DNA of 49,119 nucleotides from a phage. Position numbers and translations under genes: made by a program. The notes beneath the pieces were generated by a model that saw nothing but the letters and a program-made list of their open reading frames with translations, did not search any database and was not told the origin of the DNA. The stretch lies in sequence record PZ465523.1; one strand, 5' to 3'. Each line of letters begins with the position of its first letter. Position 1 is the stretch's first letter. Below, in pieces: positions 2,948-38,904 of the stretch.

Positions 2948-3173
2948 ACATCGAGCAATCGTGAGACTTGAAGTTATTCTCTGATACGTAGTTGAAGGAG
3001 AATGGGTATCCAGCACGTAACAGCATCTCATCACCGCGCATCTTAGATCCAAAAACGTAAACCGAGTAATCTTCACCGCCTGATTCATAAATTGCCGTAC
3101 AAGTGCGCTCAGGCATCGATGAACAACCAGTCAGGATGAATGCCGCAGTAATAATGGTGATTAACTTTTTCAT
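2946..3173 (-). CDS. cor: Cor-like superinfection-exclusion lipoprotein (75 aa)
   Basis: N-terminal signal peptide with lipobox (ILTGC); position after tail genes as in T1-like phages; RBS GAGGA before ATG at 3173. Confidence 0.6.
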   Translation of the reverse strand: MKKLITIITAAFILTGCSSMPERTCTAIYESGGEDYSVYVFGSKMRGDEMLLRAGYPFSFNYVSENNFKSHDCSM

Positions 3174-3698
3174 TTGTATGTCCTCGTCGTTAGTGTGATT
3201 GCATTGTATGTCGCATTTACTTTTATTGCAATAGCGCAATTACAATTTTTTTCGTGTAACGGGTGTCTATTTTTGTAACTGGAGATGGTGTTACAAAATC
3301 TACCACATCCGAACGCAGGTAGATATGATAAAAACTCTATATAATATATATAGATAGATAATATTTAATTTTAGCTTTATATATAATTATTGTTGTGTAA
3401 CAGTTGTCTATCGTGTAACAGGTGATTTTATTGATTCGTCAAATTTCTATCATATATGTTCAAAATTTAATCAATATTGATTCTATTCATGGATATCTGT
3501 GTATTTCTAAGAAAATGCTGTTACAAGTATTACACAATAGACACCACATAAAAACATTACTAAGATATTGATTGCGTTGACACTGGTTGTAACTTGAGCG
3601 ATATAGACACGCGGTTACACTCCAATTATATGTATTCTATTGACTAAACGCTGTTAATGGCTATAATTGACTCATCGTAAACGAAGGAGATAAACGCA
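3174..3698. promoter_or_regulatory. AT-rich divergent control region with GTTACA / TAGACA repeats and TA-repeat tract
   Basis: No plausible ORF; shares 13-mers GGTGTTACAAAAT (3287..3299) and AGATAGATAATAT (3352..3364) with region 22165..22856. Confidence 0.5.
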
Positions 3699-4763
3699 AT
3701 GTTCAAGGTATTCACATCAAGCCAGCTTTCCAACGAAGAGTACCATAGCAATGAAGGTTGGGCGGCAGAGTATGTAAGCGGATCGAGTCTTGCAGAAATT
3801 TATCAGACCTGCCCGGCTAACTGGAGATTCAAGAAGAACGAGACAACGAAAGCTCTTGAGTTTGGCACTCAGTCGCATACTAACTTTGAGAGTCGTGATC
3901 TGTTTACTGCAACGTATGCACGTTGTCCGGCTCCGTCAGAGTTCAAGGATCTGATTACGTCACAAGCCGCACTGGCTGCAAAATTAAAACCTTTCGGCCT
4001 GAAAGGTACATCCGGCAAGCAATACCCGGACCTCATCAAAATGATGATTGATTGCGGTGAAGAACTCAACGTTCAGTATCTGATCGAACTGATCGCAGAA
4101 GCTGAGGCGCGCGCTGAAGGAAAGCAACTGGTTGACGCTGACAAATACGACGCCTGCATGAAGATGAGGGCAATCCTTGAGCAGAATCCGGATCACGAAG
4201 CGTGCATCAATAGCGAGACGGCGCAGCGTGAGATCTCAATCTTCGGTGAGATATCCGGCGTCAAAGTTAAGGTTCGTCTTGACCATCTGGACTACAAAGA
4301 GAATGTTCCAGGTCGCGTGCTGACTGGTTATGATGAGAACGGCGATCCGGTATTTGAAGACGTTATTTTTCCTGAAGCTCTAATTATCACTGACTTCAAA
4401 ACCACGATGAGCGCCAACCCTTTAGAGTTCCCGAGACTGGCATACAATCACGGCTATTACCTGAAAATGGCATTGCAGCATGACCTGCTACGACGCGCAA
4501 TCCAGGCTGGCGCTTTTGAAGGAAACTTCCCAGAAGATATCCCGATCGTAGTTCGATTGCTTGCGCAGGAGAAAAAAGAGCCTTACATTGCACTTGCTTA
4601 CCGTATGACTATGGAGCAAATCAGGATCGGTCGTAGTCAGTATGTTAGCGTTGTCCACACTTACAAGGCTTGTTCTGAAATGGATGTTTGGCCTGGATAC
4701 GCTGGCGACGCAAGCGAGATTGAACTTGAAACGCCGTCATGGGTACGCTACCAAAATAAGTAA
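3699..4763 (+). CDS. RecE / lambda-exo-like PD-(D/E)XK exonuclease
   Basis: Motifs RLDHLD and LIITDFKTT resemble nuclease motifs II and III; RBS AAGGAGA; followed by ERF and SSB. Confidence 0.65.
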   Translation: MFKVFTSSQLSNEEYHSNEGWAAEYVSGSSLAEIYQTCPANWRFKKNETTKALEFGTQSHTNFESRDLFTATYARCPAPSEFKDLITSQAALAAKLKPFGLKGTSGKQYPDLIKMMIDCGEELNVQYLIELIAEAEARAEGKQLVDADKYDACMKMRAILEQNPDHEACINSETAQREISIFGEISGVKVKVRLDHLDYKENVPGRVLTGYDENGDPVFEDVIFPEALIITDFKTTMSANPLEFPRLAYNHGYYLKMALQHDLLRRAIQAGAFEGNFPEDIPIVVRLLAQEKKEPYIALAYRMTMEQIRIGRSQYVSVVHTYKACSEMDVWPGYAGDASEIELETPSWVRYQNK

Positions 4764-32471: not shown

Positions 32472-32525
32472 TAAATGAGATATAATCAGGGCTGTCAATT
32501 GACGGCCCTTTTTATTGGAGGAAAC

Positions 32526-33809
32526 ATGAAAATTGTTAAACATGATGGATATAACGATATTTTTAACGGCGGTGCAGATGGATCGCCTAAGCCATTCTTT
32601 ATGTCTGATGCATCATATCACGTCGGTTCTTTCTACAACGACAACGCAACCGCGAAGCGAATTGTGGATGTTATCCCGGAAGAGATGGTGACGGCTGGCT
32701 TTAAAATGTCAGGTGTTAAGGATGAAAAAGAGTTCAAGTCTTTATGGGATAGCTACAAACTTGATTCAAGTCTGGTGGATCTTCTTTGTTGGGCGAGACT
32801 TTACGGTGGCGCGGCGATGGTGGCAATCATCAAAGACAACCGGATGTTAACCAGTCAGGCAAAGCCTGGAGCTAAACTTGAAGGCGTCCGAGTTTACGAT
32901 CGATTTGCTATCACTGTTGAAAAGCGAGTCACCAATGCAAGATCCCCTCGCTATGGTGAGCCTGAAATCTACAAGGTATCCCCTGGCGACAATATGCAGC
33001 CGTATCTGATTCATCACTCAAGAGTCTTTATTGCTGATGGTGAGCGAGTAACGCAACAGGCAAGAAAACAGAATCAAGGATGGGGAGCATCGGTATTGAA
33101 CAAGTCACTGATTGATGCAATCTGTGACTATGATTACTGTGAATCTCTGGCTACTCAGATCTTGAGACGTAAGCAACAGGCTGTATGGAAGGTCAAAGGT
33201 CTTGCCGAAATGTGTGATGATGATGATGCTCAGTACGCCGCGCGCCTGCGACTTGCTCAGGTTGATGATAACTCCGGCGTGGGCCGTGCGATCGGTATCG
33301 ATGCTGAGACTGAGGAATATGACGTTCTCAACTCTGATATCAGCGGAGTTCCTGAGTTCTTATCAAGCAAGATGGACCGCATCGTCTCCCTGTCAGGTAT
33401 TCATGAGATTATCATCAAGAATAAGAACGTAGGCGGCGTATCAGCGAGCCAAAACACAGCGCTTGAGACTTTCTATAAGCTAGTCGATCGCAAACGCGAG
33501 GAAGATTACAGGCCGCTTCTTGAGTTCTTGTTGCCGTTCATTGTTGATGAGGAAGAGTGGTCGATCGAGTTTGAGCCTTTGTCTGTTCCGAGTAAGAAAG
33601 AGGAATCAGAGATCACGAAGAATAACGTTGAGTCGGTTACGAAAGCTATCACTGAGCAAATCATCGATCTGGAAGAAGCTCGCGACACGTTGCGATCCAT
33701 TGCCCCTGAGTTCAAACTCAAGGATGGTAATAACATCAACATTCGCGAACCGGAAGAAACAACCGAACCGGAACCGGGATTAGGGGAGAAGTTAGAAGAT
33801 GAAAATTAA
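32526..33809 (+). CDS. Portal protein
   Basis: Size and position after terminase; start after RBS GGAGGAAAC. Confidence 0.7.
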   Translation: MKIVKHDGYNDIFNGGADGSPKPFFMSDASYHVGSFYNDNATAKRIVDVIPEEMVTAGFKMSGVKDEKEFKSLWDSYKLDSSLVDLLCWARLYGGAAMVAIIKDNRMLTSQAKPGAKLEGVRVYDRFAITVEKRVTNARSPRYGEPEIYKVSPGDNMQPYLIHHSRVFIADGERVTQQARKQNQGWGASVLNKSLIDAICDYDYCESLATQILRRKQQAVWKVKGLAEMCDDDDAQYAARLRLAQVDDNSGVGRAIGIDAETEEYDVLNSDISGVPEFLSSKMDRIVSLSGIHEIIIKNKNVGGVSASQNTALETFYKLVDRKREEDYRPLLEFLLPFIVDEEEWSIEFEPLSVPSKKEESEITKNNVESVTKAITEQIIDLEEARDTLRSIAPEFKLKDGNNINIREPEETTEPEPGLGEKLEDEN

Positions 33810-34566: not shown

Positions 34567-35049
34567 GTGAATTTTAATGATTTGTTTTACCATGAAGGAA
34601 AGGATCTCATATGAAAGGTTAGCACATCAAGAAGGGTAAAGGTTGGTGATGTAGCAGGATGGAAGGATGAGCTAGGGTATGTTTATGTAAGAGTTAACGG
34701 TAAGCTAATTCCTGCTCATAGGATAATATGGGAGATGCACTACGGAAAAATTCCAGAAGGTATGGAGATAGACCACATAAATCATATAACCGACGATAAC
34801 AGGATTGAAAACTTAAGGCTGGTAACGAGGAAAGATAACTGCAAAAACGTATCCATGAGCAAATCTAACAAGAGCGGAGTGGTTGGAGTTAGCTGGTGCA
34901 AAAGGACTTGCAAATGGTTTGCATCAATTAGAGTTGATAGAAAGGAAAAGTTTTTGGGTAGATATGATAAAATTGAGGATGCAGCAGCAGCAAGAAAGGC
35001 GGCTGAGTTAAAATACAATTTTCACAAAAATCACGGGAGTAAAAAATGA
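34567..35049 (+). pseudogene. HNH homing endonuclease with AP2-like domain, interrupted by in-frame TGA at 34612..34614
   Basis: Strong RBS AAGGAGGTG + GTG 34567; TGA at codon 16; downstream EIDHINHITDDNRIENLRL...DNCKN and AP2-like WCKRTCKWFASIRVDRK. Confidence 0.55.
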
Positions 35050-36158
35050 AGGCAAAGCAAAGATTCGATTCAGTAAAAATCAAGGCGCACTTTGATGATA
35101 ACGGTTTTTTAGTTGACCGCCCAATCGTGGCGCGAATCGGCGCTCAGGTTTACAAAACTCCTCACGGCGATCGGGTTGAGTTCCGTCCGGCGTCCGAAGT
35201 TTTCAAGCAAGATTCCTTGCAAAGTTTTGCAGGCAAGCCGATCACAGTCGGTCACGTAACGGTGACTCCCCAAAATGCTAAGGACGTTGTTGTCGGATCG
35301 TGTGCTGGCGCTGGTATTGCTTCAGGGGTTGGCGTTGAAGTTCCTTTGAGTATTTACAGCGACTACGCGATCAGCAAAGCTAAAGCAAAAGAAGCGGGTG
35401 AATTATCTGTTGGCTACACGTCAGTAGATATTGATAAGCCTGGATGGGGTTCTAACGAGACTGGGGAATATATCTTCGAAGAGGATATGAAGCAGGATGA
35501 AGCACCGCCGGAAGGCTGGGTTAAATTTGACGCGGTACAGACTAATATCAAGGTCAACCATATCGCACTAGTTTTCAAGGGTCGTGCTGGAATTGCTAAA
35601 TTAAACCTTGATGCTGAACAGGAATTTCCGTATGATAATAACGTTCAATTAACTAACGAGGACAAGCAAATGAAAAAAATCAAGATCGACTCCGTTGATG
35701 TGGAAGTAACCGAAGACGTTGCTAACCATATCGAAAAATTAACCGCACAGATTGCCACCATTCAGGGGAAAGCTGATGGCTTCGAAGCTGAGCGCGACGC
35801 TCTTAAGGTTAAGGTTGATTCTATTCCTGAACTTGTAAAAGCAGAAGTAGAGAAGCAGAAAGCTGACGCCGCAGCACGTGCAGAAGTTACCGCAGTAGCA
35901 GAAACCGCAGGCGTCAAACATGATGGTCTTGATATCAAAGACGTCAAGATTGCCGTAGTTAAAGCCATGCTTGATAAAGATGTTAGTGAAAAATCAGACG
36001 CATATATCGACGCTATGTTTGATGTTGCTAAAGATTCTGATATCATGGCTATTCAGCGTAAAGCAGTAAAAGGCGACTCTATCGAAGATGGCAAGCAGGA
36101 AGAGAAAAACGACGCCGCACCTGTTACGCCAAATTCACGTTTAAGCAAAGTAATGTAA
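35046..36158 (+). CDS. Head scaffolding-like protein
   Basis: Position before capsid genes; C-terminal coiled-coil rich in A/E/K. Confidence 0.5.
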   Translation: MKAKQRFDSVKIKAHFDDNGFLVDRPIVARIGAQVYKTPHGDRVEFRPASEVFKQDSLQSFAGKPITVGHVTVTPQNAKDVVVGSCAGAGIASGVGVEVPLSIYSDYAISKAKAKEAGELSVGYTSVDIDKPGWGSNETGEYIFEEDMKQDEAPPEGWVKFDAVQTNIKVNHIALVFKGRAGIAKLNLDAEQEFPYDNNVQLTNEDKQMKKIKIDSVDVEVTEDVANHIEKLTAQIATIQGKADGFEAERDALKVKVDSIPELVKAEVEKQKADAAARAEVTAVAETAGVKHDGLDIKDVKIAVVKAMLDKDVSEKSDAYIDAMFDVAKDSDIMAIQRKAVKGDSIEDGKQEEKNDAAPVTPNSRLSKVM

Positions 36159-36170
36159 GGAGAAAAAATC

Positions 36171-36647
36171 ATGGCACAGATTAACGCATCTTATCAGCGC
36201 GATATGGCGATCGCCCTTCCGGGTATGGTTGCAGACACTTCCAAGTACAACATTGACGGCGCTTGTGTCGTTAACGAAGGTGATGTTTTCGTCGGTGCTG
36301 CCGTCCAGGTTGTCCAGGCTCAGGCGGTTGACGGTCATAAACTGGTTAAAGCTATGGAGGCATCTAAAGTGCCTTATGGTGTAGCCATTCGATCTCACTG
36401 GCAGACTGTGAACTCTAAAAACCAAATGGTTTATGAAGAAGGCGGCGCAATCAACGTCATGACCTCCGGTCGAGTCTGGATGCTTTCAAAATCAGAAGAA
36501 GCACCAACTTTCGGAACCGCCGTAAAACTTGACGTTGACGGTCAAGAGAAATCTGATGGCGAGATCGAAACTAACTGGACTTACGCTGGCGGCTGGACTA
36601 AATACAAAGACGTTAAGCTTGTAGAGGTTCAGTTGCATCAACTGTAA
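36171..36647 (+). CDS. Capsid-associated protein, possible decoration protein; paralog of next ORF
   Basis: Shares YNIDG-x-CV, FGAAVQVV, PYG-x-A-x-RS and WT-x-AGG blocks with 36708..37472. Confidence 0.55.
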   Translation: MAQINASYQRDMAIALPGMVADTSKYNIDGACVVNEGDVFVGAAVQVVQAQAVDGHKLVKAMEASKVPYGVAIRSHWQTVNSKNQMVYEEGGAINVMTSGRVWMLSKSEEAPTFGTAVKLDVDGQEKSDGEIETNWTYAGGWTKYKDVKLVEVQLHQL

Positions 36648-36663
36648 TTAGCGTTTAATATGG

Positions 36664-36693
36664 GGACTATCCTTTTTGGATAGTCCTTTTTTT
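36664..36693 (+). terminator. Rho-independent terminator
   Basis: GGACTATCC-ttttt-GGATAGTCC stem followed by TTTTTTT. Confidence 0.7.
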
Positions 36694-36707
36694 ATGGAGA
36701 AATTATT

Positions 36708-37472
36708 ATGGCTTACGAAAATTTAATGTTGCGACCAGCGTGTCCTGGCAATCTTTCTGATACTTCAACCTACAATATTGATGGATCTTGTGTTGCTCAG
36801 GGTGATATTGAGTTCGGCGCTGCGGTTCAGGTTGTCGGGATCGTTGATGGAGTGAAGGTTGTAAAGGCGCTTGCTGATGGTGGTACTCCTTACGGTATCG
36901 CTTTCCGTTCACAATACGAAAACCTGAGCGGTAAAATCTTAGACGGTGAAGTTTGCAACGTCGTTTCTCATGGTCGCATGTGGACCCTCACTTCTCTTGA
37001 TGAATCTCCGGCCTTATTCTCAAAGTTACAATTTGGATCTGGCGGTGTTGTTACTGGTAGCTCTGGTTCCGTAGGTTGGACATTTGCTGGCGGGTTTGTT
37101 AAGCACGATGAAGGGTACATTATTGAGGTGCAGGTGAAGCAAAATACTTTCATTACTCCACCTCCACCCACTCCTGTTGTTCTTGTTGAGTCTGCGACGA
37201 TTACCACTAACAAGGAGAGTCCGCAGCCAAACAATGCGCCTGTGCAATTTAACGTTGCCGTAAAACCTGACAACGCCACCAATAAAACTGGCGTGTGGTC
37301 TGTTGATGCTGAAAATGTTGCGACAATAGATCCAAAATCTGGCGTTCTTACTCCAATTGGTGGAGATTCAGCAGGTAGCGTAAACGTAAATTGGACGGCT
37401 AACGATGCCAGCAAAACTAAAGAATCGATCACTTATGTCTTTGATGCTACGCCAGCCGAAGAAGACTCATAA
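36708..37472 (+). CDS. Capsid-associated protein with C-terminal Ig-like extension
   Basis: N-terminal domain paralogous to 36171..36647; Pro-rich linker then beta-rich C-terminus. Confidence 0.55.
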   Translation: MAYENLMLRPACPGNLSDTSTYNIDGSCVAQGDIEFGAAVQVVGIVDGVKVVKALADGGTPYGIAFRSQYENLSGKILDGEVCNVVSHGRMWTLTSLDESPALFSKLQFGSGGVVTGSSGSVGWTFAGGFVKHDEGYIIEVQVKQNTFITPPPPTPVVLVESATITTNKESPQPNNAPVQFNVAVKPDNATNKTGVWSVDAENVATIDPKSGVLTPIGGDSAGSVNVNWTANDASKTKESITYVFDATPAEEDS

Positions 37473-37484
37473 CATAAAAATACT

Positions 37485-37512
37485 TTGACGCTTTAACAAA
37501 AAGTGCTATTAT
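37485..37512 (+). promoter_or_regulatory. Sigma70-like promoter (TTGACG, 16 nt, TATTAT) with reversed box in the spacer
   Basis: Read directly; upstream of major capsid gene. Confidence 0.55.
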
Positions 37513-37516
37513 TGAA

Positions 37517-37543
37517 GCCGTGAACATAATCACGGCTTTTTTA
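37517..37543 (+). terminator. Terminator hairpin immediately downstream of capsid promoter
   Basis: GCCGTGA-acataa-TCACGGC followed by TTTTTT; probable start site lies inside the left arm. Confidence 0.6.
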
Positions 37544-37563: not shown

Positions 37564-38523
37564 ATGACTACTAAAAAATTTGATGAAGCAGATAAGAGCA
37601 ATGTTGAAATGTATCTGATCCAGGCTGGCGTAAAACAGGATGCAGCCGCAACGATGGGTATCTGGACCGCTCAGGAACTACACCGCATCAAGAGCCAGTC
37701 CTATGAAGAAGACTACCCGGTAGGCTCCGCACTTCGAGTATTCCCGGTCACTACCGATCTTTCTCCGACCGACAAGACGTTTGAGTATATGACCTTTGAT
37801 AAGGTTGGCACTGCGCAGATTATCGCTGACTATACAGATGACCTGCCGCTTGTTGATGCCCTGGGTACTTCTGAGTTCGGCAAGGTATTTCGTTTGGGTA
37901 ACGCGTATCTGGTCTCAATTGATGAAATCAAAGCAGGTCAGGCAACTGGTCGACCACTGTCAACTCGCAAGGCAAGCGCATGTCAGTTAGCACACGACCA
38001 ACTGGTTAACCGCCTGGTGTTCAAAGGTTCCGTTCCGCACAAGATCGTGTCCGTGTTCAATCATCCGAACATCACCAAAATTACCTCCGGTAAGTGGATG
38101 AATGTCTCAACTCCGAAGCCGGAAACGGCTGAAGCGGAATTGACTCAGGCGATTGAAACAATCGAGACGATTACTCGCGGCCAGCACCGAGCTACCAATA
38201 TTCTGATCCCGCCGTCTATGCGTAAGGTTCTGGCGATCCGTATGCCTGAAACTACCATGTCTTACCTGGACTATTTCAAGTCTCAGAATGCGGGTATCGA
38301 AATCGACTCTATCGCAGAGCTTGAAGATATCGACGGTGCGGGTACTAAAGGCGTGCTGGTGTACGAAAAAAATCCGATGAATATGTCCATCGAGATCCCG
38401 GAAGCATTTAACATGCTGCCAGCGCAGCCGAAAGACTTGCACTTTAAAGTGCCTTGCACCTCTAAGTGTACTGGTCTTACAATTTATCGCCCGATGACTA
38501 TTGTCTTAATCACTGGCGTGTAA
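37564..38523 (+). CDS. Major capsid protein
   Basis: 319 aa; strong RBS AAGGAGAAG; promoter upstream and strong terminator downstream; position in head module. Confidence 0.7.
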   Translation: MTTKKFDEADKSNVEMYLIQAGVKQDAAATMGIWTAQELHRIKSQSYEEDYPVGSALRVFPVTTDLSPTDKTFEYMTFDKVGTAQIIADYTDDLPLVDALGTSEFGKVFRLGNAYLVSIDEIKAGQATGRPLSTRKASACQLAHDQLVNRLVFKGSVPHKIVSVFNHPNITKITSGKWMNVSTPKPETAEAELTQAIETIETITRGQHRATNILIPPSMRKVLAIRMPETTMSYLDYFKSQNAGIEIDSIAELEDIDGAGTKGVLVYEKNPMNMSIEIPEAFNMLPAQPKDLHFKVPCTSKCTGLTIYRPMTIVLITGV

Positions 38524-38530
38524 TATTATA

Positions 38531-38558
38531 GGGGCTAACTTAGTTAGTCCCTTTTTTA
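38531..38558 (+). terminator. Rho-independent terminator after capsid gene
   Basis: GGGGCTAAC-tta-GTTAGTCCC stem followed by TTTTTT. Confidence 0.7.
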
Positions 38559-38572
38559 TTGGAGAAATCAAA

Positions 38573-38860
38573 ATGGCTAAAGAAAAAACTGTTGTTATCG
38601 TAAACGTTGGTGTAGCTCTTCAGATGTTCCGTCTTGAAGATGGTTCCTTTGCTAAAGTTCTTCCAGATGAAGAGGTCACGCTTCCGGCTTCCGTTCTTGA
38701 TTTACCTGGCCTGCGTTGCTTAATTGCTCGCGAAGAAATCGAAGTTAAAGACGACAGTGCAACCAACCGCAAAATCCGCGATGAAATGGCAAAGATCACG
38801 AAGCCAGATCCGTGGGATAGCAAAAGCGTTAAAGAGCTTGAGGACGGCGGCGAATATTAA
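38573..38860 (+). CDS. Hypothetical head-tail region protein (95 aa)
   Basis: RBS GGAGAAA; flanked by terminators. Confidence 0.5.
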   Translation: MAKEKTVVIVNVGVALQMFRLEDGSFAKVLPDEEVTLPASVLDLPGLRCLIAREEIEVKDDSATNRKIRDEMAKITKPDPWDSKSVKELEDGGEY

Positions 38861-38904
38861 TCATCAAGGCGCTCACGTAGCGCCTTTTTTTATGGGGGTG
38901 AATT

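Follow-up and report, generated by a model that had tools for sequence, protein, structure and literature searches.

The two adjacent open reading frames that precede the major capsid gene in the phage DNA analyzed here (sequence record PZ465523.1, a stretch of 49,119 nucleotides referred to below as the window) raise the question of what two related proteins do at the capsid and what sets their relative amounts. The initial annotation, made from the letters alone, had taken them for a decoration protein and a surface-displayed variant whose ratio may be regulated by a strong terminator between the genes. The explanation that we favor, with a probability of roughly 0.9, is that the two products, here called A and B, are both capsid cement proteins and that B is a paralogue present in low amounts that displays an Ig-like domain.

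The window is approximately a complete genome of a Tunavirus, a T1-like siphophage of the Drexlerviridae, and the DNA of the region is 96% identical to that of Shigella phage phiL and 95.5% identical to that of Shfl1. The locus is collinear with ORFs 50, 49, 48, and 47 of phage T1, and both phages have the gene order protease, A, terminator, B, promoter/hairpin, major capsid protein (MCP). Two genes upstream, an HNH endonuclease gene is inserted in the window phage, unlike in T1. The features of the locus are as follows.

35046..36158, + strand: head maturation protease/scaffold gene (PF09979, phrog_530), syntenic with T1 gp50 and directly upstream of A
36171..36647, + strand: ORF A, cement/decoration protein of 158 aa (PF22758), orthologue of T1 gp49
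36662..36693, + strand: intrinsic-terminator-like hairpin (11-bp stem, 5-nt loop) and 7-T tract between A and B
36708..37472, + strand: ORF B, 254 aa, orthologue of T1 gp48 and FCWL1 gp29 ('IgG-domain-containing decoration protein')
36708..37166, + strand: cement (beta-tulip) domain of B, aa 1-153 (PF22758), orthologous to the N-terminal domain of T1 gp48
37152..37181, + strand: Pro-rich linker of B, ITPPPPTPVV, about aa 149-158, read from the translation
37194..37421, + strand: Big_2 Ig-like domain of B, aa 163-238 (PF02368)
37485..37512, + strand: sigma-70-type promoter-like site TTGACG-N16-TGcTATTAT, upstream of the capsid gene
37514..37542, + strand: second hairpin and T-tract, beginning 2 nt past the -10 box
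37564..38523, + strand: MCP with the HK97 fold (PF09950, E 5.5e-61), 98% identical to T1 gp47

The gap between the protease/scaffold gene and A is short and free of sites resembling promoters or terminators, so the two genes may be transcribed together.

Both reading frames were confirmed on the + strand with exactly these limits, and BLASTP between their products gave 58/144 identities (40%, E 2e-31), which establishes them as true tandem paralogues. The conserved blocks are more numerous than the four claimed initially: PGxxxDTSxYNIDGxCV, GDxxxGAAVQVV, VDGxKxVKA, PYGxAxRS, NVxxxGRxWxL, WTxAGGxxK, and EVQxxQ. Both proteins exceeded the gathering score of 27 bits of the Phage_cement family PF22758, which is built around E217 gp24 and Pam3 gp6. 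A matched over profile positions 1-145 of 146 (107.5 bits, E 8e-31) and B over positions 9-145 of 146 (64.3 bits, E 1.7e-17). Each also matched PF23982 (XM1 gp53), more weakly than PF22758. A has the same length as T1 gp49 (158 aa) and is 89% identical to it, with a small divergent patch at aa 54-84, and a PDB sequence search with A retrieved 9kmg_a/9kzj, named 'Decoration protein' and 'cement protein II', with an E value of 1.6e-93. Given the 89% identity to the solved T1 gp49 chain, A probably adopts a beta-tulip fold.

B as a whole is 77% identical to T1 gp48 (254 versus 255 aa), and its residues 1-153 are 89% identical to residues 1-153 of gp48. In the PDB its orthologues 9kzj_H (E 2.4e-132) and 9kmh_ak (E 4.8e-132) carry the names 'BIG2 domain-containing protein' and 'Decoration protein gp29'. 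The extension of B had been described as a Pro-rich linker followed by a beta-rich C-terminal domain, and this description held: the linker reads ITPPPPTPVV, the C-terminal domain scored 29.1 bits against PF02368 Big_2 at aa 163-238 (gathering cut-off 22.8 bits), and an AlphaFold2 model of B built from a 26-sequence alignment was all-beta. The mean pLDDT of this model was 85.5, dipping to 72-76 in the residue blocks 141-160 that contain the linker and exceeding 90 in the Ig domain. The modeled cement domain superposed on 9kzj_H and 9kmh_ak with target-normalised TM scores of 0.88-0.89, and the model also matched the Pam3 cement protein 8hdt_G (E 7.6e-5). In Foldseek comparisons the Ig domain aligned with that of T5 pb6 (rmsd 1.8 Å over 93 columns) and with the Big_2-CBM56 structure 7quz (rmsd 2.5 Å), as well as with the DT57C tail tube protein and the C-terminal Ig domain of lambda gpV. 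The model thus predicts that B combines a Phage_cement beta-tulip domain with a Big_2 Ig-like beta-sandwich.

The orthologues of the pair are the capsid cement proteins gp49 and gp48 of T1, named 'capsid decoration protein' and 'IgG-domain-containing decoration protein' in GenBank record AY216660, in agreement with the decoration protein and displayed variant proposed initially. In the cryo-EM structure of T1 (Chen et al., 2025, Viruses 17:351; PDB 9KZJ; PMC11945409), the head consists of 415 copies of gp47 in a T=7 lattice, held by 80 gp49 homotrimers and 60 heterotrimers of two gp49 and one gp48. Counted as subunits, this amounts to 360 of the A type and 60 of the B type (6:1); the supplementary material of Chen et al. 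includes no copy-number table. Both T1 proteins have a beta-tulip fold like that of TW1 gp56 and lambda gpD, and the N-terminus of gp49 is embedded in the inner capsid surface whereas gp48 is found on the outside only (PMC11945409). The C-terminus of gp48 (residues 154-255) appears as weak protruding density and was modeled by AlphaFold3 (PMC11945409). Absence of both proteins from purified virions, which the initial annotation had given as grounds for abandoning its reading, does not hold for the orthologues in phage SH6. LC-MS/MS of CsCl-purified SH6 virions detected ORF32 (17 kDa, 55% coverage, 7 unique peptides) and ORF33 (26 kDa, 23% coverage, 5 unique peptides; PMC5238451, Table 2), which are the orthologues of A (89% identity) and B (79% identity), respectively.

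As has been shown for orthologues, the beta-tulip domains of A and B would form trimers on the outer capsid that occupy the 140 threefold and quasi-threefold sites of a T=7 lattice and clamp three capsomers together. Both proteins would bind to the platform of the MCP; the N-terminal arm of A would thread to the inner surface, while B would stay outside and present its C-terminal Ig-like domain outward on the flexible Pro-rich linker. More speculatively, the Ig domain would give weak, reversible adhesion to host-surface or environmental glycans. The T1 authors suggest that the C-terminus of gp48 aids adsorption, and the Hoc-like adhesion role of its Ig domain is a suggestion of those authors only (PMC11945409).

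We then considered what could set the amount of B. The terminator reported between the two genes was found in the 60-nt spacer, as a hairpin at 36662..36688 with an 11-bp stem containing 5 GC pairs, followed by 7 T, a sequence with the hallmarks of an intrinsic terminator. The spacer folds at -17.5 kcal/mol (z = -3.7 versus dinucleotide shuffles), and a rho-independent terminator is annotated at the equivalent site in T1 (AY216660) and Chapo. Among 80 related loci taken from IMG/VR with an alignment of A proteins, 48 were usable with the order A-B-MCP and 30 had a single cement gene. A hairpin with a T-tract lies directly 3' of A in all 48 paired loci, in 27 distinct sequences that by eye fall into several unrelated stem families (GGGGACTATCC..., AAGGCGCTC..., AAGGCCGGA..., AAAGGCTCC..., and others). 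Structure and position have therefore been maintained through complete sequence turnover. Between the window and T1, the A/B spacer is 97-98% identical (both intergenic spacers, 93-98%), compared with 80-90% for the flanking coding DNA.

No promoter-like site was found between A and B, so the B message must come from read-through of the hairpin. We propose from these sequence features that the hairpin may act as a partial terminator/attenuator or as a 3' stabiliser of the A message. B would then be made in lower amounts than A through hairpin read-through together with a weaker Shine-Dalgarno sequence (GGAG, -6.4 kcal/mol, versus the strong AAGGAG of A, -9.2 kcal/mol), and the final stoichiometry would be set by which lattice sites accept B. 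The Shine-Dalgarno sequence of B was weaker than that of A in 25 of 35 distinct contexts and stronger in the other 10, a mild trend that is not decisive. Attenuation agrees with the unequal 360:60 stoichiometry of T1 and with the conservation of the hairpin, and these observations fit, short of proof, the regulation of the A:B ratio by a hairpin that may lower the dosage of B. A literature search for T1-group transcriptomics returned nothing relevant.

The same hairpin could instead serve as generic punctuation of the operon or as a 3' stabiliser of mRNA, the ratio being set purely by the lattice sites and excess protein discarded. We take this alternative seriously, although we judge it somewhat improbable. 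Ten terminators are annotated between ORFs 53 and 31 of T1 and four lie within 2.3 kb in the window; since terminators of this kind are numerous in the late region of T1, the one between A and B need not be specially tuned, and assembly geometry alone can explain 60 copies. The product of the portal gene, which is situated upstream and oriented the same way, is present in 12 copies per virion; this shows that transcription alone does not set stoichiometry. On the other hand, a hairpin that terminates transcription or stabilises the upstream RNA lowers the B message relative to that of A either way, and B has no promoter of its own. The presence of the hairpin in every paired locus despite sequence turnover, in a spacer more conserved than the nearby coding DNA, likewise speaks against mere punctuation and for attenuation.

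The pair had also been placed just before the major capsid gene. The MCP gene is indeed the next gene, but B does not directly adjoin it: a 91-nt spacer intervenes that contains a promoter-like site with 10/12 matches and an extended -10, followed by the second hairpin. The equivalent promoter site is annotated in T1 (AY216660) and Chapo and is conserved across the Tunavirinae and Tempevirinae; the T1 record annotates both a promoter and a terminator before the capsid gene. From its sequence, the hairpin at 37514..37542 would end transcripts arriving from B, and transcription starting about 7 nt beyond the -10 would begin within the 5' arm of this hairpin. By eye, every sequence displayed except one shows a pre-capsid hairpin, the exception being a stretch that ends short of it, and a strong T-tract is present in 27 of 48 loci.

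The position of B on the capsid can be approached through lattice geometry. Of the 140 local threefold sites in a T=7 lattice, 20 lie on strict axes and the others form two orbits of 60, and each hexon touches one strict, three hexon-only general, and two penton-adjacent sites. According to the legend to Fig. 2A of the T1 study, a hexon is surrounded by four homotrimers and two heterotrimers (PMC11945409). Two per hexon is the number expected for the penton-adjacent orbit of 60 sites and for no other, which assigns the heterotrimers to these sites. From this geometry we infer that each fivefold vertex would be encircled by heterotrimers and so by five Ig domains.

The decoration proteins of phage FCWL1 are reportedly treated in a structure study by Cai et al. 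(2025, Structure 33:663), and the publications citing that study contained nothing further on cement proteins. The PDB holds an FCWL1 capsid entry (9KMG) and the entry 'Portal Vertex of Bacteriophage FCWL1' (9KMH). Five chains of gp29, the B-type protein, are present in 9kmh and in no other FCWL1 entry, a number that fits the vertex-ring picture. The occurrence of gp29 in this entry alone would also be expected if B were a portal-vertex-specific cement subunit with about 5 copies per virion, in which case the terminator would enforce a much steeper A:B ratio. The 158-aa protein is represented by 43 chains over 9kmg, 9kmh, and 9kzj, which by inferred arithmetic partition as 7 + 30 + 6 and thereby fit an all-A FCWL1 asymmetric unit. 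This suggests that the icosahedral asymmetric unit of FCWL1 was modeled with seven A, versus six A and one B in T1, and that 9kmg has the 158-aa protein as its sole cement chain, which would be at odds with 60 copies of B; the T1 and FCWL1 deposits thus seem to disagree on the position of B. Nevertheless, restriction of B to the portal vertex is distinctly unlikely. Residues 2-153 of gp48 were built into the icosahedrally averaged 3.5 Å map of T1, with 60 heterotrimers (PMC11945409), which one-twelfth occupancy would not permit, and the 5 versus 7 peptides of the SH6 proteins are hard to square with 5 versus about 415 copies. Given the conflict between T1 and FCWL1, the occupancy of B could differ between ordinary and portal vertices.

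The further idea that A and/or B are scaffolding proteins or a Zot-like toxin derives from GenBank product names only ('SbcC-like scaffolding protein', 'putative zonula occludens toxin', 'tail fiber protein', 'HtjA') and has a negligible probability, as neither protein has a Pfam match to Zot, SbcC, or fibre families, the scaffold/protease function belongs to the upstream gene, and the T1 structure contradicts it: orthologues are seen on the surface of the mature capsid, and purified virions contain them.

To place the cement pair in a wider context, we searched with A using tblastn and obtained 1146 places in 841 phage records. The pair is present in the Tunavirinae, the Tempevirinae, and a Klebsiella K50 group. 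A single cement gene is present in Webervirus and in Rogunavirus, the latter having in addition an unrelated collagen-repeat ORF in the slot of B. We considered this ORF as a diverged cement paralogue and rejected it (hhalign probability 0.1%, collagen repeats only). The extension of B varies: it contains one Big_2 domain in T1 and the window phage and two in AV106 and tinuso (337-338 aa), and it is missing in Tlsvirus (143-173 aa). In the Klebsiella K50 group (268 aa) the extension has no Pfam domain and shows weak similarity to the window Ig domain by phmmer and tblastn. A neighbor-joining tree of cement domains placed all A together and B in two deep groups, and is too weak to distinguish one ancient duplication from several.

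Between the window and T1, dS is 0.49 in the cement domain of B and 2.2 in the linker and Ig part, where amino acid identity is 59%; dN/dS is low (0.13-0.14). The divergent stretch has sharp limits at about 37200..37470 and a nucleotide identity to T1 of 52-70%, and the Ig allele of the window is common to Chapo, phiL, and Sfin-5 at >90% identity. From this pattern, the Ig module looks to have been exchanged by recombination within Tunavirus, and the window allele looks recombinant relative to T1. At about 40% identity, the Ig domain of B resembles the C-terminal Ig domains found in tail tube proteins of the T5-like type. [quoted passage not shown] Tentatively, and as a proposition that we regard as rather doubtful, the second cement gene of the Drexlerviridae might be an exchangeable display slot, that is, a low-dosage, attenuator-limited paralogue in vertex-adjacent trimers that carries a swappable outward module, be it zero to two Ig domains or an extension of unrecognised type.

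Altogether, the pair is identified as T1-type capsid cement proteins. The finding is correct but not new: two cryo-EM structures, virion proteomics, and curated reference annotation had already described the system. Virion proteomics of SH6, structure prediction for B, and comparison with decoration proteins of related phages, the kinds of check suggested at the outset, support it, and as a sequence-only reading that correctly predicted a decoration protein and a displayed paralogue it serves as a clean positive control. What this analysis adds is modest: the A/B hairpin is universal among the 48 paired loci, the display domain is modular and looks recombined, the heterotrimers would ring the vertices, and the T1 and FCWL1 deposits seem to differ. 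In practical terms, the many GenBank homologues that are still labelled 'hypothetical', 'zonula occludens toxin', or 'scaffolding protein' can be re-annotated. The linker and Ig domain of B form a natural site that tolerates module swaps; with as many as 60 copies on each head of a phage renowned for its robustness, this site is attractive for phage display or engineering. The conserved terminator, in turn, is a simple case in which the tuning of stoichiometry between paralogous structural genes could be tested.

In comparison with known systems, the window pair has the gene order, protein lengths, and Pfam domains of the T1 and FCWL1 pairs, and the model of B superposes on their solved chains. 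It differs from T1 in the Ig domain of B, which is a different allele with saturated synonymous divergence. Pseudomonas phage E217 gp24, cyanophage Pam3 gp6, and XM1 gp53 belong with the pair in the Pfam cement families PF22758/PF23982, and TW1 gp56 and lambda gpD are structurally similar beta-tulip trimers. Whereas Vibrio phage XM1 has one cement protein that forms homotrimers, the T1 group has two paralogues in homo- and heterotrimers, and the N-terminus of its A protein extends to the inner capsid surface. T4 Hoc, lambda gpV, and the tail tube proteins T5 pb6 and DT57C likewise display Ig domains, and B shares with them a Big_2-type Ig domain attached to a structural protein via a flexible linker. 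The carrier is what sets B apart: Hoc is a separate monomeric decoration protein, whereas B is a cement paralogue in one position of a heterotrimer, and in contrast to lambda gpV and T5 pb6 its Ig domain is carried on a capsid cement protein and not on the tail tube.

Between the gene for the Ig-bearing cement paralogue (B; 254 aa, orthologue of T1 gp48 and FCWL1 gp29) and the major capsid gene (37564..38523, + strand), the window carries a putative transcription signal, and two further hairpins follow the capsid gene:

37485..37542, + strand: sigma-70-like promoter (TTGACG-N16-TGcTATTAT), then a hairpin and T-tract, directly upstream of the capsid gene
38530..38552: terminator-like hairpin after the capsid gene
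38866..38886: terminator-like hairpin after the small DUF7444 gene (38573..38860)

The promoter and the hairpin of the first element are separated by a gap of 2 nt. The promoter is kept throughout Tunavirinae and Tempevirinae; the hairpin varies in sequence among loci and is followed by a strong T-tract in only 27 of the 48 related IMG/VR loci with the same gene arrangement. If transcription starts about 7 nt past the -10 element, the start site would lie inside the 5' arm of the hairpin. The terminator would then halt read-through from B while sparing promoter-initiated capsid transcripts. The two downstream hairpins are part of the close succession of terminators that characterises the T1 late region.

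We compared the cement genes with those of related phages. Nucleotide identity to T1 drops to 60-70% at 36330..36420, which encodes residues 54-84 of the 158-aa cement protein (A, orthologue of T1 gp49), and to 52-70% at 37200..37470, a patch that spans the outward-facing Ig domain of B. Both patches are sharp-edged and lie in DNA that is 80-98% identical to T1, which suggests mosaic exchange. Beyond the T1-like phages, Weberviruses (locus L002, Webervirus NJS2) have only one cement gene, of 173 aa, and B is absent from Rogunaviruses (locus L003, Rogunavirus AHS24, 3072..3957). In the latter its slot is taken by two overlapping ORFs: the first, of 150 aa, contains collagen triple-helix repeats and is wrongly annotated as 'DNA polymerase', and the second has 148 aa. 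The two may be one frameshifted capsid-fibre gene.

Misleading product names are also attached to homologues of A and B in GenBank relatives, namely 'putative zonula occludens toxin', 'HtjA', 'SbcC-like scaffolding protein', 'tail fiber protein' and 'putative scaffolding protein'. Tlsvirus records place the start of B at an upstream TTG, so that the gene overlaps A and takes in the intervening terminator. The start codon is also at issue in two ORFs of the window itself:

32475..33809: portal ORF as listed, 444 aa
34552..35049: HNH endonuclease ORF (HNH_3 and AP2-like), an insertion that separates the head-morphogenesis gene from the protease/scaffold gene

The likely true portal start (MKIVKHDG…) lies 17 codons downstream of the listed one; counted from there, the protein has 427 aa and is exactly as long as its T1 counterpart. 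The HNH ORF overlaps the start of the protease gene, and the insertion is covered by only three of 62 related records (ULIM2, 99.3%; ESCO41, two records, 78%). The HNH motif (…AHRIIWEM…) has its first His upstream of the called ATG (34735), so either the ORF has lost part of its N-terminus or its start codon is non-canonical.

Regarding the position of B in the virion, PDB chain counts for the FCWL1 capsid (9KMG) and portal vertex (9KMH) imply an icosahedral asymmetric unit with seven copies of the 158-aa protein, and an Ig-bearing paralogue confined to the portal vertex. The 158-aa proteins of FCWL1 and T1 are identical in sequence. In contrast to the FCWL1 chain counts, the model of the T1 capsid (9KZJ) has six copies of the 158-aa protein plus one of the paralogue, at every vertex.
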